Shown here: in pieces, positions 15,985 to 60,019 of the stretch
How the letters are laid out: the number at the start of each line of letters is the position of its first letter
Numbering within the stretch: the stretch's first letter is position 1
NCBI GenBank assembly: GCA_037131125.1
Contig: JBAXRR010000003.1
Location: 3,682 to 67,681 of the forward strand
Direction of reading: 5' to 3'
DNA from: a bacterium
GTDB taxonomy: Bacteria; Patescibacteriota; Dojkabacteria; GCA-016699595; JBAXKR01
Length of the DNA: 64,000 nucleotides
Notes under the pieces: generated by a model
The model's input: only the letters and a program-made list of their open reading frames with translations
Told to the model about the DNA's origin: nothing
The model's database searches: none
Position numbers and translations under genes: made by a program

Positions 15985-16055
15985 TAATCATATAACATAT
16001 TTGATATTTTTATTTTAGGAAAATAAAGAAATAATTAATTATTAACTTTTGAAAA

Positions 16056-17702
16056 TTGGCACTGCCCAGCTTATCAGCATTGTATTCTGATGATCAAAGT
16101 ACAACTAAAGAGGAACCCAAAGTAACAACTGAAAAAGTTGATTCTAAACCTGAGGTAAAACCCGAGGTTAAAGCTGAACCAGCTAAGGTAGAAGCCGTTA
16201 CTTCATCAACCAATTTAGATGAACCTGTTAAAGATGAAATTGTAAAATCATCACCAATATCTTCAGAAAATATAACTGAGCCAGCTGTAGTGTTGCCAAA
16301 ATTAATTGAAAATAATCTGACTCCTGAAGATATTAAAAAGAAAATAGATAAAGAAAGTAATAGTAGTGATCCACTTCCTACACCTGAAAGAGCTAATCCT
16401 GAATCTGTTACTCCAGTTAAAATTCCTGTTACACCTCTCTCACCTACTGAAGTTGTAAAGGAAACCGTACCTGTAGAAAATAAAGTTACTTCTGAGGTGC
16501 CTGAGTTACCTGCTAGTCCACTTCAAGGTGTTGAATTTAGAAAACCAAGTGCAGATGCACCAGAAGATAAACCTAAAGAAGTTGTAGATACATCAATACA
16601 ATTTGGTGTAAGCGATGATAAATCTCCAGAGTCTAAAGATGAACCATATAAAATATTCGAATTACTAGATAAGGTTATTGCACTTAATGCTTCAGACTTA
16701 CATCTGACAGTTGGATATCCTCCATATATTAGAGTAGATGGAAAATTAAACATGTTAGGTAGTGTTCCAATAAACCCAAAGCAAATGGAATCTCTTCTTG
16801 CTCCTGTTCTTGGAACAAAGAATCAGGAACAATTGGAAATTAATAAAGAAGTAGACTTCTCATATGGTTATGGAGAGTTTGCTAGATTTAGAGTTAATGC
16901 TTTTAATCAGAGAAATACAATTGCTGCAGCATTTAGATTAATTCCTACAAAAATTCCAACGCTTGAGGAATTACATATTCCTAAAACAATGGAAGATTTT
17001 ACAAAACTTCCACAAGGATTTGTCTTAATAGTTGGACCTACTGGATCAGGGAAGAGTACGACACTTGCATCTATGCTTAATATTATTAATATGAGAGATG
17101 CAAGGCATATACTTACTGTAGAGGATCCTATTGAATATGTTTATCCAATTGCAAAAAGTATTGTTGAACAAAGAGAGGTTTCTCAAGATACTCACTCTTG
17201 GGATATTGCGCTTCGTTCTGCACTTCGTGAAGATCCTAATGTGGTGTTAGTTGGAGAAATGAGAGATTTTGAAACAATTGCTGCAGCTCTTACAGTTGCC
17301 GAAACTGGACATCTTGTGTTTGCAACACTTCATACTAATAGTGCTTCACAAGCTGTAGACAGAATTATTCATGTATTTCCTGCAGATCAACAAGCACAAA
17401 TTAGGATTATGTTGGCAAATGTGGTTACTGCTATTGTGTCTCAAAGACTTATTCCAACAATTGGAGGAGGAAGACGCGCAGCATTTGAAATCCTTATTGG
17501 TACATCTGCTGTTTCGAATATGATTCGTGAAGCTAAAGAACATTTAATAGATAACGTTATTCAAACTAGTGCAGATGTTGGAATGGTAACAATGGAAAAA
17601 TCACTTGTGGATTTAATTAGAGAGGGAAAGATAACTGTAGAGGATGCTCAGAATTTCACGACTAAACCTGAAGAATTAATGAGGTTAATTAATAAAGAGT
17701 AA
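16056..17702 (+). CDS. pilT: twitching-motility ATPase PilT family, with a ~200 aa low-complexity N-terminal extension (TTG start as called; true start uncertain)
   Basis: ASDLHLTVGYPPYIRVDG, GPTGSGKSTTLA and LVGEMRDFETIAAALTVAETGHLVFATLHT. Confidence 0.8.
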   Translation: MALPSLSALYSDDQSTTKEEPKVTTEKVDSKPEVKPEVKAEPAKVEAVTSSTNLDEPVKDEIVKSSPISSENITEPAVVLPKLIENNLTPEDIKKKIDKESNSSDPLPTPERANPESVTPVKIPVTPLSPTEVVKETVPVENKVTSEVPELPASPLQGVEFRKPSADAPEDKPKEVVDTSIQFGVSDDKSPESKDEPYKIFELLDKVIALNASDLHLTVGYPPYIRVDGKLNMLGSVPINPKQMESLLAPVLGTKNQEQLEINKEVDFSYGYGEFARFRVNAFNQRNTIAAAFRLIPTKIPTLEELHIPKTMEDFTKLPQGFVLIVGPTGSGKSTTLASMLNIINMRDARHILTVEDPIEYVYPIAKSIVEQREVSQDTHSWDIALRSALREDPNVVLVGEMRDFETIAAALTVAETGHLVFATLHTNSASQAVDRIIHVFPADQQAQIRIMLANVVTAIVSQRLIPTIGGGRRAAFEILIGTSAVSNMIREAKEHLIDNVIQTSADVGMVTMEKSLVDLIREGKITVEDAQNFTTKPEELMRLINKE

Positions 17703-17706
17703 ATAC

Positions 17707-18930
17707 ATGAAAGTATATAACTACGAAGCGTATACAAAAACTGGAGAAAAAGTTTCAGGTGAACTTGAAGCAGGATCTAAACAAGATGTTGTAACAATAC
17801 TTCAAAACCAAAGCCTTATTATTGTCCATGTTGCAGAGGGACAAAAATTTTCTTTAAGTAAGCTTACTAGTTTTAGCTTCGGAGGTATTGGGCTTAGTGA
17901 TAGAGTCATTTTTATGAAGCAGTTCTCTACTATGGTTAGCGCTGGTCTTCCAATTACAGAAGCACTTGAAACTTTATCTTCACAAATTAAATCTTCAACT
18001 TTAAAGTCTATTTTATCAAGGATATTAAAAGAAGTTAAAAGTGGTAGTTCACTTACTAATGCATTTAAGAAAAATGCTGGAATATTTGATCCTATTCAAA
18101 TTAACTTGATTGAAGCTGGAGAAAAATCTGGAAAACTTATTGAGATCATCGCAAAGATATCAAAAGATCTTGATCAAAGAAAAAACTTTGTTGGTAAAGT
18201 TAAAGGTGCCATGATTTATCCAATAATTATTTTCATCTTAATTATTGTGATCATGGTTGTTCTTATGGTCACAATGGTCCCTGCTGTTGAAACACTTTTC
18301 AAAGGATTTAAAGCTGAAGTTCCTTGGATTACTAAAGCAATGATCGCTGTTTCTAATTTCTTAAATCCAACAAGATCGATTGGAAGTATCCTGATAATAA
18401 TATTTGTAGTAGCTTTTATAATTGGATTTAGATATTACCGTGCAACTCCATCTGGTAGAAAAATAACTGATAAAATTATTTTAAGAGTTCCAGTATTTGG
18501 GAAAATTACTTCACTTCTTAATACTGAAGAGTTTTGTAGAATCTTATCCATGCTTATGCAAAGTGGTGTCCCAATAATTGAAAGTTTAAGAATTGTTGCT
18601 GGAGCTATGAATAATGTCATATTTAGAGAATCTGTTATGAACATGATTCCACAAATTGAAAAAGGTTTTCCACTAGCAGCTCCAATGTTAAGAGATGGTG
18701 TATTTCCTCAAATATTAACTAGAATGGTTGGAACAGGAGAACAAACTGGTAAGTTAGATAAAGTTCTAACAGATATGGGAAAGTATTATGAGGATGAACT
18801 TGATGCTATTACAAGTAATCTTACGAAACTTATGGAACCTGTTATTCTTTTAGTAGTTGGTTTCTTTGTAGGACTTATGGCGATTGCAATTTATCTCCCT
18901 ATTTACCAATTGGCAACTGTAGTTAAATAA
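17707..18930 (+). CDS. pilC: type IV pilus platform protein PilC (GspF family)
   Basis: Two T2SS-F repeats and three TM segments. 407 aa. Confidence 0.8.
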   Translation: MKVYNYEAYTKTGEKVSGELEAGSKQDVVTILQNQSLIIVHVAEGQKFSLSKLTSFSFGGIGLSDRVIFMKQFSTMVSAGLPITEALETLSSQIKSSTLKSILSRILKEVKSGSSLTNAFKKNAGIFDPIQINLIEAGEKSGKLIEIIAKISKDLDQRKNFVGKVKGAMIYPIIIFILIIVIMVVLMVTMVPAVETLFKGFKAEVPWITKAMIAVSNFLNPTRSIGSILIIIFVVAFIIGFRYYRATPSGRKITDKIILRVPVFGKITSLLNTEEFCRILSMLMQSGVPIIESLRIVAGAMNNVIFRESVMNMIPQIEKGFPLAAPMLRDGVFPQILTRMVGTGEQTGKLDKVLTDMGKYYEDELDAITSNLTKLMEPVILLVVGFFVGLMAIAIYLPIYQLATVVK

Positions 18931-36885: not shown

Positions 36886-39800
36886 CTAGAAATTAAAGAG
36901 GTTCTTCAAGGTATTAAGTATGAGAGTAGTGACATCTTTCGACACACTTGCAGTAATAGCTACTGTATTTGATGAGTATCCAGTATTGTTTGCCTTATCA
37001 TTAGATATTGCTCTAAAGTGATATACCTTAGAAGGCTCTAATCCTGAGATAACTACTTGATGATTTAGCGTAAGGTTAAAATCAGTAGTAGTCTTAGTAT
37101 TGTATGTATCCGAATATCCATCTCCATACTCTACACTTGTTGTAGCAGGCTCATCCGTATTCCAATTAAGAACCACTTGAGACTTCTGGTTATTGGTATT
37201 CTCATTAGTAACTGGGTTAGTATCTATTGTAAGTTCACTAATAGCTGGAGGTCTTGTATCTGTAGATGTAGTAAATTTAATTGATTCACTTACTGCTTCG
37301 TTACCTACCTTATCTCTTCCTTTAACTATTAATATATATGGAGTATCTGGATTAAGTTGGTTCATAGTCATCTTGTGATCACCTTTGACTAAAGTCAAAT
37401 TAACAAGATCTCTAGAACTTGTAGGTAAACCTTCTGGATAGTATGTGACAATAGATGACTCCTCTGTATTCGTGATCCACGAAACGATTAAAGTAGTTTC
37501 AGCTGTATTCTTTACTTGTTGTAACTTAATGTTTGTTACAGTTGGTCTTGGTAATGTTGTGAAGTCTAGAATTAAATTATCATACTCGTTTCCTTCTGTG
37601 TCTATAGTGTTAATTTTGTAATAGTATTTTGTTCCATCTTGAAGACCGTCTAAAGTGAGCGAATAATTTGTTTCTGAAACTGATGTTGCCAATTCTTTTG
37701 CACCTCCAAAGGAAGTGGAAATACCATAGTATAGTTTTACTTTTGATGCTTTGATAGAGGTAAAATCTATTTGTGCACTGCTAATGCTCACATATCTGGT
37801 AACAGTGTTTTTAACAATTGGAGCAGAATCGGTAGTAAATATTTTTTCATCAGACTGTCCTGTGTTTCCATCTTCGTCAGTCCAGCTCACTTTGAAAAAA
37901 TAACTTGTTGAGGGTTTAAGATTTGTTAGGTTAACAATATGATCCGTATTTTGTGCTGAATTCCCAACCTCATCTTTAAAGTATTCTCCGGAAGCTAATC
38001 CATATGATACTTTTGAATCACTTGATCTATCTGTTGTCCAAGATATTTCACCTGTTCGAATACCTGAGATAACATTAGGTCCGGAATTTAATTTAGCGGG
38101 ATTTTTAAATTTACCTTTAGGAGTTAATGTAACTGCGTTTGTATATGAAGGACTTGCTTTAGATTCATCTGAATTATCTGTTGTTCCAACTCTCCAGTAA
38201 TATGGTTTAGATTCAGCAACAGTATCTATGTACGAATTGCCTGTAGTTGTGTCTACATCAGTCCATGTTGTTCCGTTTTCTGATCTTTGTATTTTATATG
38301 TTAGTGTTCCTGTTCCTTGATATGCAGGATTTTCCCATACTAAAGAACCTCTCCAAAGTAATGCCTCCTTAATTGAAGCGTCACTTACCAATAGGTTAAG
38401 TGCAGGATCTGGGAGAGATGAGTTAAGTACAAATTTTCCTTTAAGACAGCTAGAACCAGAATAATTGTTCACATTATCTACGGACACTACATATACTGTA
38501 TTATCTCCTTTAACAGCTCCAATGAGTTTTTGTATTGGTACACTGTTTGTGAGTACTGGAATATATGTAGCAGAATTTGAAAGAATGGAAGAATACGAAT
38601 TAGGTGGGTTCGTATTAACCATATAGTAGTATGATTTTATTGTTTTACCTAATGCAGGTACTGCTGCATCCCAAGAAAGTGCAAAAAGATTTGAGTTTAA
38701 TGCTGATGGAGTAAGAGTAATTCCAGTTTCATCTAAACAAGATTTTGAAAATGTAGGTGCTTCTCCACCATATGAAATATTTGCGGTTCTATATGTTCCT
38801 TGAATTGAAGTGTTTCCTATACTATCTATAGTTCGAAAGTAAATTACATTATTGCCAACAATAATATCTGATCCATCTCTTACAGGATCTAAATAATATG
38901 GTTGCGCTTCCCCAACTGGAATGTATTTAACTCCAAGTGTAGGGTCATTGAAAGATCCATTCCAACTTCCACTGGTCCCATTGATTTTGTATTGCCATCC
39001 AATGACTTGTGACTCGTTATCTATTGAAGCTGTTCCACCAGTTGTTGGCCATGTGAAAAACATATCTGAAATATTGAAAAAACTTCCATTTGTTGAAGAG
39101 ATGTAAGTTACATTTGTTGGAGGTGTATTATCAAATCTAAATTGAAAACTTGTTGAAGCACCTTGATATATATTATTACCAACATCTATTGCTTTTATAC
39201 TTAAGTAGTATGGTGATGTAGAAGATGTTAATGCACTTGCTAAATATCCACTAGTTGATAAATCTAATGAAGTCCCAGCCACAATGAACTGACAAGTTGA
39301 ACCAACTGTTGATACTGGAGATGTTCCAAGAATTCCCTTAACAGTTGCTGGATCTCCAGCTGTAGTTATATTTAGGTTTAAACAATATCCCTTAATGCCC
39401 TTTCCACCTACATTATCTATACCCGCTGTCCAAGTAAAATATGGTGTAGAAGAGTTTGTCCAAGCATTTGAGGATATTCCAGTCCCCCCATTACTCGTAT
39501 ACATTAATATACTGCTCGCATTTGTTGGAGGAGGTGTAACATCAGACTCTGTTTTATTGATAGTAATATCTGAAAATACAGGAGTCGTATTATCTGCTGT
39601 ATTTAAAGTCACTTCATATTGAACATACCTTTGATTGTTTGTTACACACCCACCAGTTGATATATTTGCACCAGATGCAATAGCAGTACATGAGGAGAAT
39701 GCAGTTGCACCAGACATAGTAGATGAATTACTTGATCTTACTTTTACAGAAACACTTCCGGAACTATTATATCCGAGTGTAGTCCAATCTTGTCCAACAG

Positions 39801-41241
39801 TTGAATCAAAAATATTTGAGGTTACACTTCCTGTTGTAACATATGTGTTTAAACTTATATTATCTATGTATACTGTTTTGTTTCCTTTAAACTGTACACC
39901 ATAAGTTCTTACTGCATTTGCACCTACTACTGTTCCTGTTAACTGATACCAACCACTTCCAACAGAATTATATGTTGTTGTGATAGTTGAACCATTTGAA
40001 AAGAGTTCAATATCAGAAGATGTTACTGCTGAGCCATTGGTGTATGCATATGTTGAAATATTATATGTATTTGTATCTCCAAGATTGATTGACTGTGTAA
40101 ATTCCCCTTTCCTTGTTCCCGTTGAAACTAACTTTGCACTTCCTGTACTTCCACCATATTTAGTAACAGTATCTCTTGTAGCAGAAGTTATTCCTGTTGT
40201 AATAGCTATATTATATTTATCCCTTAGATAATTTTCGATTCTTCCTCTATTATCACTTGAAAGTCCTGTGTTATATACGATTACTTCAGCAATATCTTCA
40301 TTTTGATAATGCCCACCTGCGTTAAATCTACCAAGATCTATGTTGGCAAGATTAGTTGCAGTGAAATCACCACCAACCAAAGTGTATGAAGTTTCGTTTC
40401 CGTTTACTCCATATTTTGAAGCATTTGTACCTTGATCAACTCCAAAGTAATTTCTAATGATTCCGAAGTTATTTAATGCAAAAGCTTGTGAAGTATAATT
40501 TACGCCGTTTGATTTAATTCCCCCTATGTTTCCACTTGCTAGTCCATATGTACCTATGTGGTAACCATTTTGAGGACTACTAAACCCTATTCCTAAACTA
40601 CTGTGTGTTCTGTTTCTAATTACTAAGAAGACCTCTGGCGCTAGTCCTGCAGTTGTAGCTGTTGTTGAAAGATAATCATCTGATCCATCAAATCTAACAG
40701 CAGGTAGGCTGTTAATAGAGTTTGTTATGTAAAGAGGTTTATATGATGCTGTTGATTGAGTGGCATTTGCATTACCACTTGAATCAGTCCAAGTTGTAAC
40801 CGGATCATTGTTGTTAAGTCCAACAATAGCATCTGCTTTAAGCCATAATTTAAGCCCAGTAATAGAGCTTGGCTGAATAGTTGTATTCCAACTAGCTAAA
40901 TCAGATTCAAAACCAGTATTGGATAATTTCTCAACTTTATTTAATGTTATTTGCCCAGGAGTTCCAGTTGTGTCTACATTGGAAGATGACGAGTATGTGT
41001 TTACAGTTGTATTAACTGTTCCTCCAACAACACCTCCGCTCCAATCTGTTTGCGTCCAAGGAGCATCAACAGCAAATATTTTACCAACTCCACTTAGGGT
41101 TATGTAAGCACCAGCAACAATACCAATTGAGATCCAAATGAGAGCAAATATATTTAATTGCCACTTAATAAAATATACCTTCTTCGTAAAGAGTTGATAA
41201 TTAAGATTCTTAAGGTTATTCTTAATTTTATTTAAGAGCAT
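36886..41241 (-). CDS. giant (1451 aa) Thr/Ser/Asn/Gly-rich cell-surface protein with repeated beta-rich (fibronectin-III / Ig-like) modules
   Basis: N-terminal membrane anchor. Long low-charge T/S/N/G-rich repeats. Confidence 0.55.
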   Translation of the reverse strand: MLLNKIKNNLKNLNYQLFTKKVYFIKWQLNIFALIWISIGIVAGAYITLSGVGKIFAVDAPWTQTDWSGGVVGGTVNTTVNTYSSSSNVDTTGTPGQITLNKVEKLSNTGFESDLASWNTTIQPSSITGLKLWLKADAIVGLNNNDPVTTWTDSSGNANATQSTASYKPLYITNSINSLPAVRFDGSDDYLSTTATTAGLAPEVFLVIRNRTHSSLGIGFSSPQNGYHIGTYGLASGNIGGIKSNGVNYTSQAFALNNFGIIRNYFGVDQGTNASKYGVNGNETSYTLVGGDFTATNLANIDLGRFNAGGHYQNEDIAEVIVYNTGLSSDNRGRIENYLRDKYNIAITTGITSATRDTVTKYGGSTGSAKLVSTGTRKGEFTQSINLGDTNTYNISTYAYTNGSAVTSSDIELFSNGSTITTTYNSVGSGWYQLTGTVVGANAVRTYGVQFKGNKTVYIDNISLNTYVTTGSVTSNIFDSTVGQDWTTLGYNSSGSVSVKVRSSNSSTMSGATAFSSCTAIASGANISTGGCVTNNQRYVQYEVTLNTADNTTPVFSDITINKTESDVTPPPTNASSILMYTSNGGTGISSNAWTNSSTPYFTWTAGIDNVGGKGIKGYCLNLNITTAGDPATVKGILGTSPVSTVGSTCQFIVAGTSLDLSTSGYLASALTSSTSPYYLSIKAIDVGNNIYQGASTSFQFRFDNTPPTNVTYISSTNGSFFNISDMFFTWPTTGGTASIDNESQVIGWQYKINGTSGSWNGSFNDPTLGVKYIPVGEAQPYYLDPVRDGSDIIVGNNVIYFRTIDSIGNTSIQGTYRTANISYGGEAPTFSKSCLDETGITLTPSALNSNLFALSWDAAVPALGKTIKSYYYMVNTNPPNSYSSILSNSATYIPVLTNSVPIQKLIGAVKGDNTVYVVSVDNVNNYSGSSCLKGKFVLNSSLPDPALNLLVSDASIKEALLWRGSLVWENPAYQGTGTLTYKIQRSENGTTWTDVDTTTGNSYIDTVAESKPYYWRVGTTDNSDESKASPSYTNAVTLTPKGKFKNPAKLNSGPNVISGIRTGEISWTTDRSSDSKVSYGLASGEYFKDEVGNSAQNTDHIVNLTNLKPSTSYFFKVSWTDEDGNTGQSDEKIFTTDSAPIVKNTVTRYVSISSAQIDFTSIKASKVKLYYGISTSFGGAKELATSVSETNYSLTLDGLQDGTKYYYKINTIDTEGNEYDNLILDFTTLPRPTVTNIKLQQVKNTAETTLIVSWITNTEESSIVTYYPEGLPTSSRDLVNLTLVKGDHKMTMNQLNPDTPYILIVKGRDKVGNEAVSESIKFTTSTDTRPPAISELTIDTNPVTNENTNNQKSQVVLNWNTDEPATTSVEYGDGYSDTYNTKTTTDFNLTLNHQVVISGLEPSKVYHFRAISNDKANNTGYSSNTVAITASVSKDVTTLILNTLKNLFNF

Positions 41242-50194: not shown

Positions 50195-50956
50195 ATGCAA
50201 AGTGAAACGGACAAATTTACCAAAGAAGACGCACTATCAGAAGTTTATAGCATTCTATCTGCAAGGCGAAATATCCCAACTGAAACTAATCCAACGCTTG
50301 AACCAGATGTCGCTTTTGAACCAAATGCACCCGAGTGGCTTACATATCTCGGACTTATGAAGGTAAAGATATTTAGAGAACAAGCCAAAACGGGTATAAA
50401 TATTGTTTGCCATGAAATTGGTCCACAAGTTTTGGATGAATATACTTGGTCAAACTACACTCTTTTAGAACTTAGTTGTGCTAAGTATTTAGCAATAGAG
50501 GAAAATGAATGGATTATAGGGGAAATAGAGAAGTACCGAAAAAGTTTAAAGAGTCCGTTAGCATTTTTAATAACATTCTTTGTTCGTAGAAAGCTAGCTG
50601 TTTATAAAGAAGAATTTTTTATGAATGTAAGAGCTTGGGAACTATTGGATGTAATTATTAATGATCAAAAATTAGAAGATAGAATATATAATTGTTGTGA
50701 TCAGTCTCAAATTGAAATTAATGAATTGGAAAGAAAAGTAAGAGAATCTGTTATAGACATGGGGAAGCTTTTAGCTGATGCAATAACAAGTGATTATTCT
50801 TTAGAGAGTAAAGGTCACTTTATCAATGAAAGCCTTACAAATTATAATGTAATACGAAGATATTTAGATGATGTTCTATCGGACGAGGAAGATGATCAAA
50901 ATGGAGATTTAGATAGTGATCCGACTAATGATGATCCAGATCCACTCCCACAATAA
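50195..50956 (+). CDS. hypothetical protein with an acidic C-terminal tail
   Basis: 253 aa ORF. Confidence 0.4.
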   Translation: MQSETDKFTKEDALSEVYSILSARRNIPTETNPTLEPDVAFEPNAPEWLTYLGLMKVKIFREQAKTGINIVCHEIGPQVLDEYTWSNYTLLELSCAKYLAIEENEWIIGEIEKYRKSLKSPLAFLITFFVRRKLAVYKEEFFMNVRAWELLDVIINDQKLEDRIYNCCDQSQIEINELERKVRESVIDMGKLLADAITSDYSLESKGHFINESLTNYNVIRRYLDDVLSDEEDDQNGDLDSDPTNDDPDPLPQ

Positions 50957-51053
50957 GTTTAAATAAAAGTCTTTTTAAATTTTGGATTAATATATATAAT
51001 TTTCTTAATAGATATTAATTTTGTGTAATAAGCGACTTATAGTATAATTAGTA

Positions 51054-51518
51054 ATGCAAGCAGAGCTATGTTCAGAAAGAACAAATCATAGAAGTCCAGA
51101 AATGTCAGGTGTTGTTAATTGGGTGAGAACCAATATCTTATCTCCAATGCTTTCCCCATATTCAAGCGAGACATTTATGAAATCTTTTGATAAAGCTGCA
51201 AAAGATATTCTTTTCGATGAGATGTACAAATTGGAAGGAAGGTTCTTAAAAAGCAGAGAAAGATTTGGAAGTCGTAATTTGCAAGATTTTAGGCAAAGGG
51301 AATTGTATCTACTTCCAATAGCAAAACAAACGCTAAACGATGAATTATTTAAAACGCAAGAAATTAGAGCATTGTATGACATTCTAAATCTTAGAATACA
51401 TTTTCTACCATTAAAACTTCTAGTTCCAATATTTTTTCGGAGGTATAATGAAAAAATTGGGAAATTGAAAATAGCAATCTCCAAAGCAGAGGAAGAAATA
51501 AAAAGTATGGAGATATAA
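51054..51518 (+). CDS. hypothetical protein
   Basis: The plus-strand ORF is more protein-like than the fully overlapping minus-strand ORF 51086..51529. Confidence 0.35.
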   Translation: MQAELCSERTNHRSPEMSGVVNWVRTNILSPMLSPYSSETFMKSFDKAAKDILFDEMYKLEGRFLKSRERFGSRNLQDFRQRELYLLPIAKQTLNDELFKTQEIRALYDILNLRIHFLPLKLLVPIFFRRYNEKIGKLKIAISKAEEEIKSMEI

Positions 51519-51579
51519 CCCTCTTGCAATCTTTATATAGAAAATTCATAATTTAATATATATTTATAAAGAAAATCAG

Positions 51580-51762
51580 ATGGATATTATTAACATCATT
51601 ATTTACGTTGCTATAGCTATTTTCATATTCTGGCTTCTTCTTAAGGTTATTAAGATTACATTCAAAGTTGCCATATTTGTTGCTGTAGTTGTTTTTGTAG
51701 TTAATTTTCTTCTACAGTTTGACCTCATTGGATTCATTACTAAACTTATTAGTGGAAAGTAG
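51580..51762 (+). CDS. small hydrophobic protein (2 TM)
   Basis: 60 aa. Two hydrophobic helices. Confidence 0.35.
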   Translation: MDIINIIIYVAIAIFIFWLLLKVIKITFKVAIFVAVVVFVVNFLLQFDLIGFITKLISGK

Positions 51763-51763
51763 T

Positions 51764-53392
51764 TTAGCCGAGGAACTCTAGTAATAGCTTTTTAATCATT
51801 GTTCTTCTATCTTTATGCATACACTCAGGTGATTTTCTATCCCTTTTTCTGTTTATATCATGACCAAATAGTTTGTCTATGTAGTTTCTACCTTTAAAAG
51901 TTTTGAATAAAAATTCATATCTCATTGGAACATCATTTAATACTCTCAATATTTTATGCACTCTTATTAGCTGTTCTTCTGAGATAACTATGCTTGGATA
52001 TTTTGCACCTGTTTTCTCAAAGCTTTTGCATAATCCTTTTGTTCTTTCCGTAATCTTTTTAGCAGAGAGGTGTATTCCTCTTTCGTCCATTATTCTTGTA
52101 TAGATTCCTTTTGCAGTAGATACTGGTACTTTTCCATTTAAATCATCTCTATGTTCTAAGTAATATTCAATTAATTGTTTTCGAAATAACATTGGAATTG
52201 TAAGATCTTTGGAATTGTCCGAAGTATTTGGATATTCTCTGAAAGATGGCTCTACTATAAGTGCAATTCTTTTTGTTAAAACAAAATTATCCCCTATAAC
52301 TCTTCCTACTATTCCATCCTTTGAATTTATGAGTTCTTTTTCACTTTCGAAATTCACAACTTGAAACATTTCTTTGAAATAATCTCTCCCTGTTAGTTCG
52401 ACTATTTTTCTTTTACTCACTCGATCTATTTCGGCAAAGGGGATTCCAAGAGGATACCTATCTTGTAGTTCAACTATTGAATGTAGTGCAATGCTTCTAA
52501 AGTTAGGCTTCCCATTATTCCGAATTACACTTTTTGTCATGAGTAATCTTGCCTTAGGTTCAGAGTCAAAATAGCCGTTTTCTTTAAGTATCTGATATTC
52601 CTTAATATTTTTCTCAGATATAATCAAGAAGCCTTCACTTCCAGGGTTAGTTTCAAATAATTTAGGATTGCCATCTTTAAATACAATATTTGAAGTTAGC
52701 GTTTTTAGAAATGCTGCGGTTAGTTGTCTTGAAAAGGATCTTTTCGGAAGTAAGTCAGTTACTAAGTACTCACCTGGACCATCAAGGTTACTTAATATAT
52801 TAAGAAGCATATAAGGATTAAGTTTTCCAATCTTTTCACCTCTTGCAAAACTTCCACCAACTATCAACTGATTAAGTCTAATTCCATATTGTTCCCATAA
52901 GTAATTATGTGCTTCAGCTATGGCAACTGCTCCTGCTAGTCTGTTTCCTTTTCTATCTGGGATATCTATGACGTTAACTCTTCTTTCTACTACTTTGTAA
53001 CCATTAAACATTCCGGTATGGAAGACAGGTAAGGCAATGAAAGGAAAGACTGAACATATTACCTTTTTAATTTCAAAAGCGAATTTGTATTTAATACCTT
53101 TGTTCTCACTCATCTTTGTTCCACTTTCTTCTTTATTAATCTGATCGAGTGTTAACATTAAAGCTTGAGTAGTGATTGGCAGAGATCCCATTGTGAGATA
53201 AGCTATTAATCTTTCTATATGAGTAGTTCCAGCCGATGGCCATGGGATATGGAAGAAGGAATCATATGTTAATCTTTTTACTTTAATTGGAGGGAAATTG
53301 GGAACCTGCTCTTCAGAATTTTGCAATCCAAAGAATCCAATTCCTTGTTTAAGAGTTCTGCTTTTTGGTGGACATTTACGCTCAGATTCCAA
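51764..53392 (-). CDS. unknown-function protein, paralog A of a pair (542 aa)
   Basis: Shares blocks with ORF 54531..56198 (PWP.AG.THIER, IP.(R/N)KGN.LA.A.AIAEA..LW..YG.RLN, GKL.PYM, GEYLV.D, NGYFD, IVELTG). No P-loop. Confidence 0.6.
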   Translation of the reverse strand: MESERKCPPKSRTLKQGIGFFGLQNSEEQVPNFPPIKVKRLTYDSFFHIPWPSAGTTHIERLIAYLTMGSLPITTQALMLTLDQINKEESGTKMSENKGIKYKFAFEIKKVICSVFPFIALPVFHTGMFNGYKVVERRVNVIDIPDRKGNRLAGAVAIAEAHNYLWEQYGIRLNQLIVGGSFARGEKIGKLNPYMLLNILSNLDGPGEYLVTDLLPKRSFSRQLTAAFLKTLTSNIVFKDGNPKLFETNPGSEGFLIISEKNIKEYQILKENGYFDSEPKARLLMTKSVIRNNGKPNFRSIALHSIVELQDRYPLGIPFAEIDRVSKRKIVELTGRDYFKEMFQVVNFESEKELINSKDGIVGRVIGDNFVLTKRIALIVEPSFREYPNTSDNSKDLTIPMLFRKQLIEYYLEHRDDLNGKVPVSTAKGIYTRIMDERGIHLSAKKITERTKGLCKSFEKTGAKYPSIVISEEQLIRVHKILRVLNDVPMRYEFLFKTFKGRNYIDKLFGHDINRKRDRKSPECMHKDRRTMIKKLLLEFLG

Positions 53393-53905
53393 ATGTATAT
53401 TGATAAATATTATGAGTCACATTGTCTCACCATGAAATCGTTCCTTGCAAAATATTATAAATATGTTCATTATTTACATAATAGCTACTGATAATGCCTA
53501 TACTGCTATTGTTGTTATGAAAATACCAGTAACTGCCTCCTGTAAAGGATTATTTAGTGGTTTGGGTCAAAGAACCTGCGTAATTGACCATATTGGCGTA
53601 ACATGGATATCAGAATATTCTGATATAGGTGTCACATAGTGATTTCAATTCAAGAATTCCCATTAGTAGTTTTTTAATCATTCTTTTTCTATCTTAATCC
53701 AAGGTAATATGTTGGGATATACAATCGCTGTATATCTAATACCAAAGAATCCTGGTCCTTGGCATACGACTATTGGTTTGTAATTTACCTCTGTTTCCAT
53801 AGACCTACATTATCTCATGTTATGGGATATTCTCTCAAGCTACTCTTTACAAATTAACTTTCAATTTGGGGTATAATCCTAGGTAAATAACAATTAAAAG
53901 TATGT

Positions 53906-54550
53906 ATGAAAATCACCTTTGTAAGACACGGAAAAACAGAAGCTCATGAGTTAAATAGGAGGCAAACTTCAGAAGCTTCTCTTGGTGAGGTTGGTAAAGA
54001 CCAAGCGAAGAAAGTTGCTAAGCATTTAAAGAACAAGTTGTCAGATAAGGATTATGCCCATATTGTTTCTAGTCCATATAAAAGAGCTAGAGAAACTGCA
54101 GAATTTATCTCATCCGAAGTAGGTTTAGAAATAATAGAAAATGAATTAATCCATGAAATACTTCCCCATCCTGATCTTGATGGACAAGCATTTGATAGTG
54201 AAATTGCTCAAAGATTTTTAAGAGAAGTAGAAAAGTTTGGGTATGACATTAATTGGAAATTTGAAAATGGTGGTGAATCTATTAGAGATGTAATAAATAG
54301 AGCAAAGAAGTTTAAGCATCACTTGATGAAGAATTATAAAGGAAAAAATTTAATTGTTGTTTCTCATGGTACATTTCTTAGAATATTTATTACATATATT
54401 CTTTTAGGAGATAAATATGAGGCTCAGACATTTAAGAAAGTAATGGAATCTTTTAAGCTTGAGAATACTTCTCTTACTGAGATGGAATACAATGAAGAGA
54501 AGGGTTTATGGTATGTATACTGTATTAATTCTACACCTCATCTAGTTTAG
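53906..54550 (+). CDS. histidine phosphatase superfamily protein (phosphoglycerate-mutase-like)
   Basis: N-terminal ITFVRHGKTEAH (RHG motif). 214 aa. Confidence 0.7.
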   Translation: MKITFVRHGKTEAHELNRRQTSEASLGEVGKDQAKKVAKHLKNKLSDKDYAHIVSSPYKRARETAEFISSEVGLEIIENELIHEILPHPDLDGQAFDSEIAQRFLREVEKFGYDINWKFENGGESIRDVINRAKKFKHHLMKNYKGKNLIVVSHGTFLRIFITYILLGDKYEAQTFKKVMESFKLENTSLTEMEYNEEKGLWYVYCINSTPHLV

Positions 54551-56198
54551 TTGAGTTATATATTCTGAGACTTGCATACATTCTGAAAAGAGTTTTAAGC
54601 ATTTCTTTTCTAACTGCAGGAATATCTTTAATTGGCATTCGGTTACCCTCATGGTCTATATCATTCCCAAAAAGATTGATAATATATTGTCTCCCTATTT
54701 CTGTCCCTATTAATTGTCTATACCTTTTAGGAACATTTTCTAATATTGTAAATATATGTTTAACAATGGCAAGTTGTTTTTCTGATATCCTAATTCTTGG
54801 TTCTTTTTCAGGAAATAGTTTAAATCCAAGAGCTAATCTTCTTGTTCCAGTTGTAATATCCTTTAATGATAATTTTTTACCTCTTTCCTCCATAAGTTTT
54901 GAATATATATATCCAAGCTTAGACAATGGAATTCTCGTGTCAGGCTTTCCTCCTATCTCTTTCCAGTATTTTACAACTCTTTTTCTGAATTCAACTGTGT
55001 GATGAAGTGGCTTCTCCGGATTAGAATAAGATGGATAACTTGCTAATGGAGTATCTTCAATAATTGCAATTGGAGCTGTTAGTACTAATTTCCCATCTAT
55101 TACGTTGCCAACTTCATCAGGATTTCCTTTTCCATTCGAATACTCATATTTAAAGAAGTTGAAATCTAGTGCTTTTCCCGAATATTTTTTGCCAGTTAAT
55201 TCTACTATTCTTTCTCTTGCTACTCTATCAAGTTCACCAACTGGTATCCCATCTGGGTATTCATTTTGTAATTTAGCAATTGAATGTACCATTATGCTTC
55301 TAATATTTAACTTTCCATTCTTCCTAACTTCCCCTTTTAATATTAGTAATATAGTCGTTGGTTTGCCATCAAAGTATCCGTTGTCTTGTAAAATCTTGTA
55401 TTCTGCTAAGTTTCTTGGAGTTATCAGTATATAGCCTTCTTCTGCTGGTAGGTACTCAGCAATTTGAGAGCCATCTTCAAGTTTAGTATAACTAAGATGG
55501 CGAACGATTGAAGCAGCTGTTCCATCATTTGTAAATTTTTCTATTGGAAATATATCTCTAACCAGATACTCTCCAGCTTTTTCTAGCTTACTTAATGTTT
55601 CTGTTATCATATATGGGGATAGTTTCCCAAATGTTGTTTTTCTACCATGCTCACCACCTAATATAAAGTTGTTAAGTCGTACACCATAATGTTTCCAAAG
55701 TGAAAGGTATGCTTCTGCAATTGCAATAGCTTTTGCTAACTCGTTTCCTTTATTTTCTGGAATATCGTAAATTCCAGTTTTTTGTGAATTGAAATAGTCT
55801 TCATGAACTATTCCTGACTTCAAAAATCTTTTATAAATAGGAAGAATATTACTTGCTGTATACATTAGCTCTTTTTTAAGGTTTACTCTTACCCAGTCAG
55901 TTCTCTCTACATGTATTACTTCTTTCTTAAATATTCCTTTTAGCATATTTGCTAAATATTGAATTGTTACAGGTCCCCCTCCCATCCCTATTATTGCCAA
56001 GATTCTTTCAATATGAGTAACTCCAGCTTGTGGCCAAGGGAAGTCACATTTTTCCTGATCAAATGTAATTTTTCTAGTAGTTATTCTTGGTAACTCTAAA
56101 AGCGCAACTATATTAATATGTGGACAACTTTTGTTGTCTACACCAAAGAATAACTTATTCTGCTCTACCGTTATTTCCCCTGAGCTTCCCTCTTCCAT
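54531..56198 (-). CDS. unknown-function protein, paralog B of the pair (555 aa)
   Basis: See paralog A. 3' end overlaps the phosphatase gene convergently by 20 nt. Confidence 0.6.
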   Translation of the reverse strand: MEEGSSGEITVEQNKLFFGVDNKSCPHINIVALLELPRITTRKITFDQEKCDFPWPQAGVTHIERILAIIGMGGGPVTIQYLANMLKGIFKKEVIHVERTDWVRVNLKKELMYTASNILPIYKRFLKSGIVHEDYFNSQKTGIYDIPENKGNELAKAIAIAEAYLSLWKHYGVRLNNFILGGEHGRKTTFGKLSPYMITETLSKLEKAGEYLVRDIFPIEKFTNDGTAASIVRHLSYTKLEDGSQIAEYLPAEEGYILITPRNLAEYKILQDNGYFDGKPTTILLILKGEVRKNGKLNIRSIMVHSIAKLQNEYPDGIPVGELDRVARERIVELTGKKYSGKALDFNFFKYEYSNGKGNPDEVGNVIDGKLVLTAPIAIIEDTPLASYPSYSNPEKPLHHTVEFRKRVVKYWKEIGGKPDTRIPLSKLGYIYSKLMEERGKKLSLKDITTGTRRLALGFKLFPEKEPRIRISEKQLAIVKHIFTILENVPKRYRQLIGTEIGRQYIINLFGNDIDHEGNRMPIKDIPAVRKEMLKTLFRMYASLRIYNSTKLDEV

Positions 56199-56314
56199 TC
56201 ATTTGTAACCTAAAATTAGTATAGGATAGATTATCTCATCCAAATCTAATTATTCAATATATTTATAGGGGAAAAGGTAATAAAATGGACCTGATATAGG
56301 GTATAATCCTACCT

Positions 56315-57517
56315 ATGTACATTCCAGATAAAACAATACTAAAAAGATATGCAGATGTAGTTATTAAGTTTGCTCTTAATGACTGTAAGGGTATTAAAAA
56401 GGGAGACATAGTCTATGTAAGAATGCCTGAATCTGCTAAACCAATACTTCCTCATCTTCAAAGATCTATCCTTGAAGCAGGAGGTAATATGATCTTAGAT
56501 TATCTTCCAGATGGAATTGAAAGAGAGTTCTATGAACTTGCAGATGATGACCAGCTTATCTTCTATCCAAAAAGATATTCTAAAGCATTAATAGATTCAG
56601 TAGATCATGTTGTAAGAGTCCTTTCAGAATATGATCCAAAAGAACTAGATACAATTAATCCACATAAGTTAATGCAAAGACAAAGTAAAGCAGGTGGTGT
56701 ATTTAGAAATCTTATGCAAGATAAAGAAAAGAAAGGAAAACTTACTTGGAATATATTCCTCTACCCTACTGAAGCTATGGCTCATGAAGCTAATATGACA
56801 TTAGAAGAATATTGGAAAGAGATCATACAAGCTTGTTATCTTAATGAGGAAGATCCAATACAAAAGTGGAAAGAGGTAACTGAAATAGTAGAAAAACAAA
56901 AAGCTTTCTTAAGTAACTTAAATATTGAGTATCTTGAAATTAAAGGAGACCAAGTAGATCTGAGAGTAAAGATAGGATCTAATAGATCATGGCAAGGTGG
57001 TGGTGGAAGAAATATCCCATCCTTTGAGATATTTACATCTCCAGATAATTCTGAAGCAGAAGGATATATTAAATTCTCAGAACCCCTCTTTATCTATTCA
57101 AACTTAGTAGAAGATGTTGAACTATGGTTTAAAGATGGAAAAGTAATTAAATCTAAAGCATCTAAAGGAGAATCCCTTCTCAAAAAGATGATATCCACCA
57201 AGGGTGCAAATAGACTTGGTGAAATTAGTCTTACAGATAAGAAACTTAGTAGAATACATAAGTTTATGGCAGAAACTCTTTATGATGAGAACGCAGGTGG
57301 AACTTATGGCAATATGCACTTAGCATTAGGTCAAGCATTCTTTGAATGTCTTAAAGGAGACTTTTCAAAAACATCTAAACAAGAATTTACTAAATTAGGA
57401 TTCAATAATAGTAAAGTACATACAGATATTGTTACTAGACTCAATAGAACTGTTACAGCGATCTTAAAAGATAACAAAACAGTTGTTATCTACAAGGATG
57501 GTGAGTTTCAGATTTAA
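56315..57517 (+). CDS. M29-family aminopeptidase (AmpS/PepS-like)
   Basis: Collinear with thermophilic aminopeptidase T/II (..KLTWNIFLYPTEAMAHEA.., ..GGGRNIPSFEIFTSP..). 400 aa. Confidence 0.6.
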   Translation: MYIPDKTILKRYADVVIKFALNDCKGIKKGDIVYVRMPESAKPILPHLQRSILEAGGNMILDYLPDGIEREFYELADDDQLIFYPKRYSKALIDSVDHVVRVLSEYDPKELDTINPHKLMQRQSKAGGVFRNLMQDKEKKGKLTWNIFLYPTEAMAHEANMTLEEYWKEIIQACYLNEEDPIQKWKEVTEIVEKQKAFLSNLNIEYLEIKGDQVDLRVKIGSNRSWQGGGGRNIPSFEIFTSPDNSEAEGYIKFSEPLFIYSNLVEDVELWFKDGKVIKSKASKGESLLKKMISTKGANRLGEISLTDKKLSRIHKFMAETLYDENAGGTYGNMHLALGQAFFECLKGDFSKTSKQEFTKLGFNNSKVHTDIVTRLNRTVTAILKDNKTVVIYKDGEFQI

Positions 57518-57564: not shown

Positions 57565-57999
57565 TTATAGTATCTTCTCAAAGTAATATGATTTCTTGTC
57601 AAAGCCATTATTTTCATAGAATCTGTGTGCATCTAATCTTTTCATGTTTGAATGAAGTTCAATTGAATAACAATTCTTTTCTTTAGCAATCTGAGTTATA
57701 TATTCTAATAACTTCTTACCTAATCCTTTTCCTCTGAAGTCTTTATCTACAACTAGTTCCTCTATTGACGCTATGTTTCCATCCCATATATCTTCTCTAT
57801 ATGTCATAGCACAAACTCCTATTACTTTTTCATTTAGAATTGCTAAATAGTAGTCTTTTCTTCTAGTATCTAGATCTCTTTTGAATCTTTCTTTAACTAC
57901 ATCCAAGTCAAATTTAAAATTTTCCCATAGTTGACCATAAAGTCTTAATACTTCTTGTAAATCCTCTTCTTTAGCAAGTTTTATATTAATATCTTCCAT
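57565..57999 (-). CDS. GNAT-family N-acetyltransferase
   Basis: VDKDFRGKGLGKKLLEYI acetyl-CoA-binding motif. Confidence 0.8.
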   Translation of the reverse strand: MEDINIKLAKEEDLQEVLRLYGQLWENFKFDLDVVKERFKRDLDTRRKDYYLAILNEKVIGVCAMTYREDIWDGNIASIEELVVDKDFRGKGLGKKLLEYITQIAKEKNCYSIELHSNMKRLDAHRFYENNGFDKKSYYFEKIL

Positions 58000-58103: not shown

Positions 58104-58193
58104 GGAGAGATGGCCGAGTGGTTTAAGGCGACAGTCTTGAAAACTGTTGTGGCAGCAATGTCACCGGGGGTTCGAATCCCTCTCTCTCCGCCA
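58104..58193 (+). tRNA. tRNA-Ser (anticodon TGA), class II with long variable arm; 3' CCA encoded
   Basis: Manual fold. Acceptor GGAGAGA/TCTCTCC. Anticodon stem ACAGT/ACTGT with loop CT-TGA-AA. T-arm GGGGG-TTCGAAT-CCCTC, then G-CCA. Confidence 0.85.
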
Positions 58194-58240: not shown

Positions 58241-60019
58241 TTACTCAGACTTCAATACTTTTTTGGCATCCTCCAGATTTATTCGTGCCTTCTTTCCATA
58301 TTTATCTAATAATGAGAGTAAATTGTTTCCGTTGATTAGTGTAATTGGTTTTCCTTGTGCAAATTTATATGCATCGGGACCATAATCCGATGTAGTAACG
58401 ATTATTCCTTTCATTGCTCCCTCATCCTGCATTATTCCATACAATGCTCTAACAGATTCTACTTTGACTGTGTTTGTGTATCGCTTTGCTTGAATAATTA
58501 TCTTTCCTCCTCTTAGTGGATCGGGGTCAAAAGCTACTGCATCTACTCCAAGATCACGACTAGATTGGGTGATTTTTACCTCCATTCCAGATTGTGCAAA
58601 TTCTTTTTCAAAGACTTCTCTTACTAAGTGCTCAAAATCCTCCCAATCCATTGCTGCAATATTAAGTTGATCTTCCATTTCACCAATTACTTCTCTTGCT
58701 TCAATAAAACGTTTATCACTTTTGTCTATACTCATTATTGGCGCAATAGGTGCAAGACTTGTCAACTTACTGCTACAAATTCCCTTTAAACCACGTAAGC
58801 AAAGTTTAGGGTCAATTTTAAGAAGATTGAGTTGAAGGAAATCTTGTTTTTTTACAAACACAGATAGTATATATATGATTTTATGATTTCCCGTAGATTT
58901 ATCGAGTATATCTACAAAACCATTAAAGGCAATGGCATCAATCGAATTAGTTTCATCATTACTAAAGACCTCGTTTATTGTTCTTATAGGTATTGAGTAA
59001 AGGACTTTGTCATAGATTTTTTCTTTTTCATTCTCAGAAAGTAATATCTGCTCGCTACTCCCAGTTGTTTTATTGAATTTTTCTCCTCTATATTGGGGAA
59101 TAACATCTTGTGTAGGTAATTCGTAGTCTATCAATAGTAATTTTTCATCTTTTTTATATTGTAAGAATACATTCTCAGGGAAATCTTGTGGATAAACTGA
59201 ATCGATAAGAATCTTAGTGAAATACTTTGTTATCATTTCTGGATCACCTTCTTCAAAAAGTTTTTTCTCTCTTTCAATTCCACTGTTAAATTCTTCCTGT
59301 TCTTTAATAAACTTTTCTTTGCTTTGCTCCCAATCCGAAACTGACTTGTCATAGATAGATTTTTTCTCATTCCACTCACTTATTTGTTTTTCAAAGTTTT
59401 CTTTCCTAAGTTTTTTGTTCTTTTCGCTCCCAAAAAGTATTTCCCATAAATCTTCTTTTGGTTCGCAGTTTTGAATCTCTGGTTTCAACGAAGTAAATTG
59501 TGGTCTAGGTTCATTAAAATTTTCGTGATTTTTGTAATCTTCCCATTTAAATTTAATTGGGTTCTCAACTGAATCAATTAAGATATTATCCAAGGATTTT
59601 ATTTCATTTTCTGCTTTTTCGGAGAAACTGACGGCTTTAGACCCATTAAATTCTTTAATTTTGTAATCTTGCCACTTATGTTTGTAAGATAATGCTTGTT
59701 CATTAAGTCTTTTTTGAATATAGTTAATGTCTGGATTTGTTGGTGTACTGAACGCTTTATTTAAACCCGAATGTGATATATATCCTTTATACCCTCTAAA
59801 TTTTCCTTTTGTTGTGTAAAGAATTTCTATGTTTTGCTTTATTAAATTGAAATCATCAGTTGTTTGTCCAAATTGAATAGGACAAAGAGCTGAACTCATC
59901 TCGAATTTATTTTGGCAAACAGGGCATAAAATTACTTGTGAGATTCTGTCATTATTGTCAAATTTTAATGTTGCCTTACAATTGGGACATTGTCCTTCAG
60001 CTAATATTGTTTTTGTCAT
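58241..60019 (-). CDS. Mrr-like restriction endonuclease domain protein with an N-terminal zinc ribbon
   Basis: C-terminal Mrr_cat-like region (..DLGVDAVAF...GGKIIIQAKRY...GAMKGIIVTTSDYGPDA). N-terminal CPNC...CPVC. Confidence 0.65.
   Translation of the reverse strand: MTKTILAEGQCPNCKATLKFDNNDRISQVILCPVCQNKFEMSSALCPIQFGQTTDDFNLIKQNIEILYTTKGKFRGYKGYISHSGLNKAFSTPTNPDINYIQKRLNEQALSYKHKWQDYKIKEFNGSKAVSFSEKAENEIKSLDNILIDSVENPIKFKWEDYKNHENFNEPRPQFTSLKPEIQNCEPKEDLWEILFGSEKNKKLRKENFEKQISEWNEKKSIYDKSVSDWEQSKEKFIKEQEEFNSGIEREKKLFEEGDPEMITKYFTKILIDSVYPQDFPENVFLQYKKDEKLLLIDYELPTQDVIPQYRGEKFNKTTGSSEQILLSENEKEKIYDKVLYSIPIRTINEVFSNDETNSIDAIAFNGFVDILDKSTGNHKIIYILSVFVKKQDFLQLNLLKIDPKLCLRGLKGICSSKLTSLAPIAPIMSIDKSDKRFIEAREVIGEMEDQLNIAAMDWEDFEHLVREVFEKEFAQSGMEVKITQSSRDLGVDAVAFDPDPLRGGKIIIQAKRYTNTVKVESVRALYGIMQDEGAMKGIIVTTSDYGPDAYKFAQGKPITLINGNNLLSLLDKYGKKARINLEDAKKVLKSE

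Follow-up and report, generated by a model that had tools for sequence, protein, structure and literature searches.

The region at positions 51764–56198 of the window, i.e., the whole stretch of 64,000 nt analyzed here (contig JBAXRR010000003.1 of assembly GCA_037131125.1), has two paralogous genes, A and B, on the minus strand (Table 1). It is close to certain that A and B are intact genes of a small, lineage-restricted and fast-evolving protein family. The spacer between A and the adjacent histidine phosphatase gene carries the remnant of a third copy of the A type, gutted by an internal deletion that shifts the reading frame. Sequence comparison points securely to changes in the copy number of the family by duplication and deletion, i.e., to gene birth and death at one chromosomal site. 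The best available guess for the function of the family is a tentative one: it may consist of soluble, non-enzymatic proteins that bind nucleic acid by means of several winged helices.

Paralogs A and B are labeled by NCBI as hypothetical proteins WCO33_01040 and WCO33_01050, respectively. The NCBI annotation of A has the same TTG start as is used here, and this start fits the family pattern ME[STE][EDN]; B is an exact match to protein P0001. A BLASTP comparison aligns A and B over their full length with 203/536 identities (38%) and an E value of 9e-113. The original prediction for this region, which was made from the letters of the window, had proposed a paralogy over the whole length with several shared blocks (PWPxAGxTHIER, IPxxKGNxLAxAxAIAEA..LW, GKLxPYM, GEYLVxD, NGYFD and IVELTG). 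The paralogy is borne out, and all of these blocks are present in the alignment. The five open reading frames (ORFs) of the family, 538–568 codons in length, stay open in a genome of 32% GC, where stop codons arise easily, and their alignment has 60 invariant columns. A and B are considered real genes because long ORFs are kept open in five sequences at this base composition and because the invariant columns are present.

The extent of the family was determined with a HMMER profile of A and B, which was run against 1.84 billion (1.84e9) representatives, i.e., the 50% clusters of about 15 billion proteins. This exhaustive search shows only four clusters: B; P0002, which evidently stands for A as well; P0003; and P0004. 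The family thus has five proteins in total (A, B, P0002, P0003 and P0004). They are homologous over their full length, with profile scores of 341–509 bits for P0002, P0003 and P0004. When 185,579 species genomes and JGI metagenomes were scanned by pattern, only the same genes came up and no further members. There is no family match by tblastn in 50,697 phage and 72,556 plasmid records, no relative in a scan of the IMG/VR viral contigs, and no PHROGs hit below E 0.06 for any of the five members; a literature search on the family found nothing relevant. All members come from a few low-GC, lineage-related metagenomic assemblies. The family appears to be nearly an orphan and restricted to its lineage.

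P0002 and P0003 are both encoded in the sister metagenome-assembled genome (MAG) GCA_037135235.1 ("isolate ELA406"), at the exact positions of A and B. P0004 is a lone gene found elsewhere. It is downstream of a gene for a PMT-family glycosyltransferase and upstream of genes for beta-helix, SRAP and GH39-like proteins, all in a co-directional run, and its contig has a GC content of 32%, as does the window. The GyrB protein of the window is 93% and 81% identical to two MAG proteins, with the next identities at 62–69% (named Candidatus Dojkabacteria (WS6) and "Patescibacteria group"). Because of this pattern of GyrB identities, the host is assigned to a thinly sampled, Dojkabacteria-like lineage within the Candidate Phyla Radiation (CPR).

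The gene order in the sister MAG is GNAT – M29 – P0003 – AAA_14/DUF4143 ATPase – His_Phos – P0002 – ... – epimerase – DUF1003 – ... – TyrRS – RecG. The paralog pair thus occupies the same two positions in both genomes, which are separated by a synonymous divergence (dS) of about 1. Because of this shared position, the pair is regarded as a long-term resident and not a recently acquired cassette.

Rates of evolution were compared between the window and the sister MAG by the Nei-Gojobori method. The nonsynonymous divergence (dN) is 0.45 for A and 0.70 for B, compared with 0.05–0.27 for the neighboring genes. The dN/dS values of A and B themselves are 0.31–0.39, and the dS of the flanking genes ranges from 0.85 to above 2. 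It is secure that the proteins of A and B evolve about 5–10 times faster than those of their neighbors and are still under purifying constraint. Replacement by a xenologous allele was considered as a source of the low identity between orthologs (see Table 1) and is not needed; with a flank dS of about 0.9–2, a raised dN at dN/dS 0.3–0.4 suffices.

The relationships within the family are not uniform along the proteins. B is nearer to A (38% identity) than to its positional counterpart P0003 (32%). When B is compared by segment, the middle (residues 221–400) is like A and P0002, and both ends are like P0003. A stretch of 44 nt from the 5' end of A also shows 86% identity to the 5' end of P0003 (E 8e-8). 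These similarities, which come from five sequences, might hint at a patchwork exchange between copies, and this is offered as a suggestion only.

The third copy was located with a hidden Markov model (HMM) of the five family members that was scored against all 4194 stop-to-stop fragments from the six frames of the window. Apart from A and B themselves, the two highest-scoring fragments are both in the 513-nt spacer between A and the phosphatase gene, on the minus strand and in N-to-C order. The best fragment (positions 53681–53809) matches HMM positions 8–43 with 14.3 bits and E 0.0025, and reads METEVNYKPIVVCQGPGFFGIRYTAIVYPNILPW... from the ATG at 53800. The second-best (positions 53613–53693) matches HMM positions 532–549 with 4.9 bits and E 1.7. 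When the spacer is shuffled, 0 of 2000 sequences exceed 6.2 bits, compared with the 14.3 bits of the N-terminal piece. The similarity is also present at the DNA level: positions 53662–53698 match the 3' end of P0002 with 86% identity (E 4e-5), positions 53664–53701 are 84% identical to the 3' end of A over 38 nt, and positions 53742–53761 are 85% identical to the 5' end of A over 20 nt. The two pieces are read in different frames, and HMM positions 44–531, which represent ~490 codons or roughly 1.45 kb, are gone. What is retained is a promoter-like site, a start codon, the first ~40 codons and the last ~14 codons. The remnant is therefore a deletion derivative: its similarity to the functional copies is significant, and its reading frame is disrupted.

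The spacer with the remnant is base-for-base identical in three other, independent assemblies, which rules out an assembly artefact as its origin. In the sister genome the spacer at this position measures only 76 nt and is free of the remnant. The original prediction had pointed to a possible decayed third copy near positions 53650–53700. That similarity is borne out by the match to P0002, and the decayed copy proves to be larger than described: the C-terminal piece had been seen, but the N-terminal piece had been missed. A third short similarity, at positions 53809–53850, is to codons 380–393 of A (VKSSLREYPIT*DN compared with VEPSFREYPNTSDN; 9/14 aa, and 73% over 30 nt). It adjoins the remnant ATG on the upstream side, overlaps the promoter-like site, does not follow the order of the other pieces, and was not picked up by the HMM. 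It may be due to chance or be the trace of a more complex rearrangement.

A short element, TGAGAYAAT, is found upstream of all three copies at this locus. There are five such sites in the 64-kb window, compared with 3.3 expected, and three of the five are on the correct strand upstream of the family starts, at a distance of 28 nt for A, 8 nt for the remnant and 31 nt for B. The B site is located in the 116-nt divergent spacer between B and the M29 peptidase gene. We infer a promoter function for these elements, and the upstream regions have evidently been duplicated together with the genes. A and B are each oriented divergently from or convergently with the neighboring genes. Because of this orientation and the TGAGAYAAT sites before the starts, A and B each appear to be transcribed separately, as monocistronic units.

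A one-mismatch copy of the -10-like element, TGAGAGAAT, is found in the sister MAG within the annotated 5' end of P0002 (positions 5980–6045 of sister sequence L001). It is 28–29 nt before an in-frame TTG. This TTG, 66 nt downstream of the annotated start, yields a protein that begins with "METN...", in agreement with the family start pattern and with the TTG of A. The start of P0002 has therefore probably been annotated 22 codons too far upstream. A QGxGFFG motif is present in the other four members and in the remnant; P0002 is without it.

The spacer between the remnant and A also has a perfect palindrome of 20 bp, ATATCAGAATATTCTGATAT. The same palindrome is found unchanged in the sister MAG, in the spacer between His_Phos and P0002 (L001 5953–5972), though the remaining spacer has diverged. 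In the sister MAG it adjoins the phosphatase promoter region, and the likely -10 element of P0002 is ~40 nt downstream of it. Displaced by the remnant, the palindrome of the window is ~250 nt away from the phosphatase gene, and its distance to the A -10 element is 180 nt. The palindrome may represent a protein-binding site.

The encoded proteins do not resemble a known family. Searches of Pfam, NCBIfam, PADLOC and PHROGs give nothing usable from the whole proteins, the five members or ten isolated segments. Sequence and profile hits in the PDB to MTR4 (E 0.49), the engrailed homeodomain (E 0.07–0.3) and PH1109 (E 0.76) are at chance level and were rejected. This agrees with the original statement that the shared blocks could not be assigned to any family. 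That statement had also noted the absence of a P-loop, and indeed a search of A and B for the Walker A pattern [AG]xxxxGK[ST] shows none, nor is there an AAA or P-loop Pfam hit. The results do not point to a housekeeping single-copy enzyme, with no match in NCBIfam, Pfam or the PDB and with two copies also found in the sister MAG.

Most of the 60 invariant columns hold hydrophobic residues or Gly/Pro; His and Cys are absent from them, and the only Asp is D277. The polar residues in these columns are E64, R65, K150, E162, N176, R186, E254, E266, D277, N298, Q311, R405, K406, S426, Q475, R492 and R530. A search of the invariant columns for an Asp/Glu/His/Lys constellation as in metal- or acid/base-dependent hydrolases and nucleases, e.g., PD-(D/E)XK, did not find one, and by inspection the D145/E148/K150 cluster is not conserved in P0002, P0003 and P0004. 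The most conserved block is at residues 146–220 (KGNxLAxAVAIAEAH..LW..YG..LN.FI.GG...R, followed by GKLSPY and PGEYLV), with 39–56% identity in every pair. Across the five members, neither a conserved hydrophobic segment nor an N-terminus resembling a signal peptide is present; a transmembrane or secreted protein was rejected, in that the peaks of hydrophobicity in A and P0003 lack conservation. Segments 61–145 and 396–475 are basic in 5/5 proteins, with isoelectric points (pI) of 9.0–10.3, and the pI of the whole proteins ranges from 5.7 to 9.6.

Structure modeling with AlphaFold2 from the five-sequence alignment gives a mean predicted local distance difference test score (pLDDT) of 59.5 and a predicted template modeling score (pTM) of 0.49. 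Residues 195–340 and 365–500 have pLDDT values of 70–90, and residues 1–154 and 179–192 are unmodeled. The model from a two-sequence alignment has a pLDDT of 37 and is useless. The first unit of the model consists of helices (H) and strands (E) at H195–203, E209–212, H213–216, H224–237, E248–250 and E256–258, and the second unit has H400–414, E422–424, H425–438, H445–456, E460–462 and E468–471. In this medium-confidence model, the units at 195–258 and 400–471 would match the helix-strand-helix-helix-strand-strand order of a winged helix, and the segment at 299–381 looks like a variant of it. A pattern of an amphipathic helix, a short Gly/Pro loop and a second helix recurs at 61–90, 195–216, 299–335 and 400–438. 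A DnaD-like YxxxIxxxW motif at 404–412 is just helical periodicity, with no DnaB_2 Pfam hit, and was rejected.

If the tentative assignment to winged-helix proteins is correct, the family members would be soluble and non-enzymatic, and two or three winged-helix-like modules would come after an N-terminal region and before a helical C-terminus. They would act by binding nucleic acid, most likely DNA, e.g., as regulators, or as sensors or organizers of chromosomal or foreign DNA. Their rapid evolution would be due to a changing binding partner or to weak constraint outside a few motifs. Nucleic-acid binding is hinted at because both basic segments are basic in all five proteins. A non-enzymatic role is suggested because there is no Walker A motif and because the invariant columns are without His or Cys and have one Asp, and the proteins would be soluble because of the absence of a conserved hydrophobic segment and of a signal-peptide-like N-terminus.

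Several points weigh against this assignment. The winged-helix interpretation is derived from the order of secondary structure elements, in a model with the modest scores given above and with its first 154 residues missing. The Pfam winged-helix and helix-turn-helix models do not match, isolated segments included (best RIOX1_C_WH, E 0.22, and HTH_26, E 0.24), and the best result of the PDB profile searches is the non-significant engrailed homeodomain. Foldseek with the whole model against the PDB and BFVD gives only long, spurious alignments of low TM score, none of them significant. Comparison of the segments with each other by hhalign shows no internal repeat. The basic segments weigh little in a lysine-rich, AT-rich proteome. 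To our knowledge, typical transcription factors do not fall to 34% identity while their neighbors stay near 90%.

Tandem winged helix-turn-helix proteins, for which we take plasmid RepA/RepE-type initiators, ScpB/MukE and the SelB C-terminal domains as presumable comparators at the level of architecture only, would share with the family the predicted H1-S1-H2-H3-S2-S3 order at 195–258 and 400–471, with a related unit at 299–381; the family also has the two basic segments. However, no sequence or structure search links the family to RepA/RepE, ScpB/MukE or SelB. The family proteins are much longer than RepA or ScpB, and they have an unmodeled N-terminal region of 150 residues, a strongly conserved 146–220 block without counterpart and no detectable repeat.

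One alternative, which is considered unlikely, is that the proteins are stand-alone sensors or effectors of an undescribed anti-phage or anti-mobile-element system that diversify in an arms race. The fast divergence of the proteins and the turnover of copies at one locus are in accord with such a role, as are the additional AAA_14/DUF4143 ATPase gene inside the cluster of the sister genome and the type IV Mrr-like enzyme (mREase_IV) and tRNA gene 2 kb away. The candidate defense proteins of PADLOC-DB v2, including PDC, are likewise characterized by fast evolution and copy-number change, and the nearby Mrr-like enzyme and the variable ATPase gene add to the likeness. However, the family has no match to the 5027 models of that database. 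None of the five members has a credible PADLOC hit: the strongest, PDC-S09, is confined to one member and covers 30 aa at E 0.018. None has a PHROG hit, and no nuclease, NTPase or other effector motif was found in the family. The genes are monocistronic and stand alone between conserved metabolic genes, at positions that are the same in a genome at a dS of about 1. P0004 is in a co-directional run of envelope/glycan-type genes and not among defense genes, and the dN/dS of 0.3–0.4 does not demand positive selection.

The original prediction had considered the nearby Mrr-like endonuclease, GNAT and tRNA-Ser to be typical of a variable or defense island. These neighbors are correctly named, as shown by Mrr_cat, tRNA and Acetyltransf matches, but the argument for an island is not supported as stated. 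The window is ordinary chromosome with gyrA/gyrB, a type IV pilus ATPase/platform set, RecG and TyrRS, and its GC content is flat at 30–35%. The M29, His_Phos, GNAT, TyrRS and RecG neighbors are conserved chromosomal genes with 85–91% identity in the sister genome, the pair is long-resident, and PADLOC, PHROGs and the phage, plasmid and IMG/VR collections show no match. The idea of a variable locus does hold in part: positions 50195–56198 are a hot-spot of fast-evolving genes and turnover, with the deleted copy, the extra ATPase of the sister genome and the barely recognizable ORFs at 50195–51518, and the Mrr-like enzyme is 2 kb from it. The defense part has no support from the defense libraries.

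An uncharacterized enzyme family with a novel or unrecognizably diverged catalytic fold, also proposed originally, is a doubtful interpretation. It would fit the strong conservation of block 146–220 with the invariant K150, E162, N176 and R186, together with the N-terminal E64-R65, and the unmodeled residues 1–154 and 179–192 leave structural room for it. Each paralog is also divergently paired with a hydrolase gene (M29/B and His_Phos/A) in both genomes, but these are only two closely related genomes and the pairing may be simple inheritance. There is no profile hit in Pfam, NCBIfam or the PDB, the invariant residues are mainly hydrophobic or structural, with the near absence of catalytic-type residues described above, and the divergence rate is atypical for metabolic enzymes.

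CPR bacteria are generally thought to live attached to other cells, and it might be asked if the proteins are host-interaction or partner-specific factors of an episymbiotic cell, e.g., an exported effector or a cell-surface or pilus-associated factor whose fast evolution tracks a changing host. This is rather improbable. The family is lineage-restricted, fast-evolving and multi-copy, P0004 is co-directional with genes for a PMT-family glycosyltransferase, a beta-helix protein and a GH39-like protein, and the window has a type IV pilus gene set, all of which would be compatible with it. On the other hand, no signal peptide or conserved transmembrane segment and no repeats or adhesin-like domains were found in the family, and nothing ties the genes to a secretion system.

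It is quite improbable that the family represents a new class of rapidly diversifying multi-winged-helix DNA sensors of the CPR. Such sensors would serve as stand-alone defense against mobile DNA or would manage DNA taken up from, or exchanged with, hosts, and their specificities would arise by tandem duplication, patchwork recombination and deletion. On this long shot, the mosaic identity of B, the 44-nt match between the 5' ends of A and P0003, and the gutted third copy would be the traces of that diversification.

Drift towards loss, in which the ORFs would be functionless or nearly so under relaxed constraint in a reduced genome, is highly improbable: one copy has already been destroyed, amino acid divergence is high and the family has no assignable function, but the five long ORFs are open at 32% GC, 60 invariant columns and conserved blocks are maintained, dN/dS is 0.3–0.4 and not about 1, and the promoter-like elements are retained.

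The locus gives a clean, small-scale picture of the birth, divergence and death of orphan genes in reduced genomes. Orthologous positions with 34–48% identity beside neighbors at ~90% account in part for the orphan-like appearance of such families; at the next step outward, with GyrB identities below about 70%, members of the family would escape sequence detection. Comparable hypothetical families are common in CPR genomes, and the family is like other lineage-specific orphan families of the CPR/Patescibacteria in having "hypothetical protein" labels only, an occurrence in a handful of related metagenomic assemblies and no domain hits. It differs from the usual orphan families in that a syntenic locus provides measured dN values of 0.45–0.70 compared with 0.05–0.27, an ordered history of duplication and deletion, and a shared promoter-like element. 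If the winged-helix guess is true, the family would represent a tandem winged-helix protein of unusual length and fast evolution, restricted to a CPR branch with sparse sampling. The practical weight is small until a fold or binding partner is known, and no long-standing question is opened. The locus neatly illustrates the dynamics of orphan genes in a CPR genome and is not a surprising new system.

Table 1. Features of the paralog locus and neighboring genes, with positions in the window and protein identities to the sister MAG
Feature	Position	Strand	Identity to sister MAG	Description
Paralog A	51764..53392	minus	about 48% (47-48%), to P0002	542 aa; TTG start (MESE...); from ORF listing
Extended -10-like element	53421..53429	minus		TGAGACAAT; 28 nt upstream of A TTG start
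Perfect 20-bp palindrome	53607..53626	none		ATATCAGAATATTCTGATAT; between remnant and A; once in window
Remnant, C-terminal piece	53652..53693	minus		DRKRMIKKLLMGIL; frame continues to stop after 53613; last ~14 codons
Remnant, N-terminal piece	53681..53800	minus		40-codon ORF METEVNYKPIVVCQGPGFFGIRYTAIVYPNILPWIKIEKE; own ATG at 53800, then stop
Remnant promoter-like site	53809..53838	minus		TTGAGA-18-GATAAT with upstream TG; TGAGATAAT 8 nt before ATG; 10/12 consensus matches
Histidine phosphatase (His_Phos_1)	53906..54550	plus	91%	Pfam E 4e-34; between paralogs, not a family member
Paralog B	54531..56198	minus	32-34%, to P0003	555 aa; ATG start (MEEG...); from ORF listing
B promoter-like site	56230..56257	minus		TTGAAT-16-GATAAT with upstream TG; TGAGATAAT 31 nt before ATG
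M29 aminopeptidase	56315..57517		89%	E 3.5e-99; divergent from B across 116 nt
GNAT	57565..57999		85%	Sister ortholog has Acetyltransf hits
tRNA-Ser	58104..58193
Mrr-type enzyme	58241..60019			592 aa; Mrr_cat E 2e-32; PADLOC mREase_IV (type IV) E 1.5e-59
TyrRS			90%
DUF1003			81%

The phosphatase gene is divergent from the remnant and A over the 513-nt spacer and convergent with B, with an overlap of 20 nt. Comparison of this gene (53906–54550) with its counterpart in the sister MAG (L001 5256–5903) shows 92% DNA identity and a dS of 0.29, whereas the other conserved neighbors have dS values of 0.85–2.3 and about 80–82% DNA identity. The low dS suggests either a recent recombination between lineages at this gene or an unusual constraint at the nucleotide level. 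In the sister MAG, the ATPase gene between P0003 and the phosphatase gene (L001 3904–5202) encodes a 432-aa AAA_14/DUF4143 protein and has no counterpart in the window.

On the other side of A, the ORFs at positions 50195–51518 are 253 and 154 aa in length. The corresponding sister ORFs (L001 7924–9783) are 229, 142 and 220 aa and are barely or not detectably homologous to them, with a best E value of 2.7e-4. A 60-aa ORF located between these ORFs and A is 82% conserved. Positions 50195–51518 are regarded as a second patch of very fast turnover. A further difference between the two genomes is a sister ORF of 350 aa (L001 12760–13812), which is between a gene for a Ser-rich protein and tRNA-Tyr/TyrRS and has no counterpart in the window by tblastn.

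In the Mrr protein (58241..60019), classed by PADLOC as a type IV methyl-directed restriction enzyme, a long middle region separates a zinc-ribbon-like CxxC pair at the N-terminus from the Mrr_cat nuclease domain at the C-terminus. The gene for this protein directly adjoins tRNA-Ser. At a greater distance from the paralogs, a 1451-aa ORF (36886–41241) has purple-acid-phosphatase-N, fn3 and PhoD_N-type domains only near its C-terminus and probably encodes a giant surface protein. Positions 13765–18930 contain a type IV pilus or type II secretion-like set with two T2SSE ATPases (739 and 548 aa) and a T2SSF platform protein; such pilus/secretion gene sets are typical of CPR bacteria.

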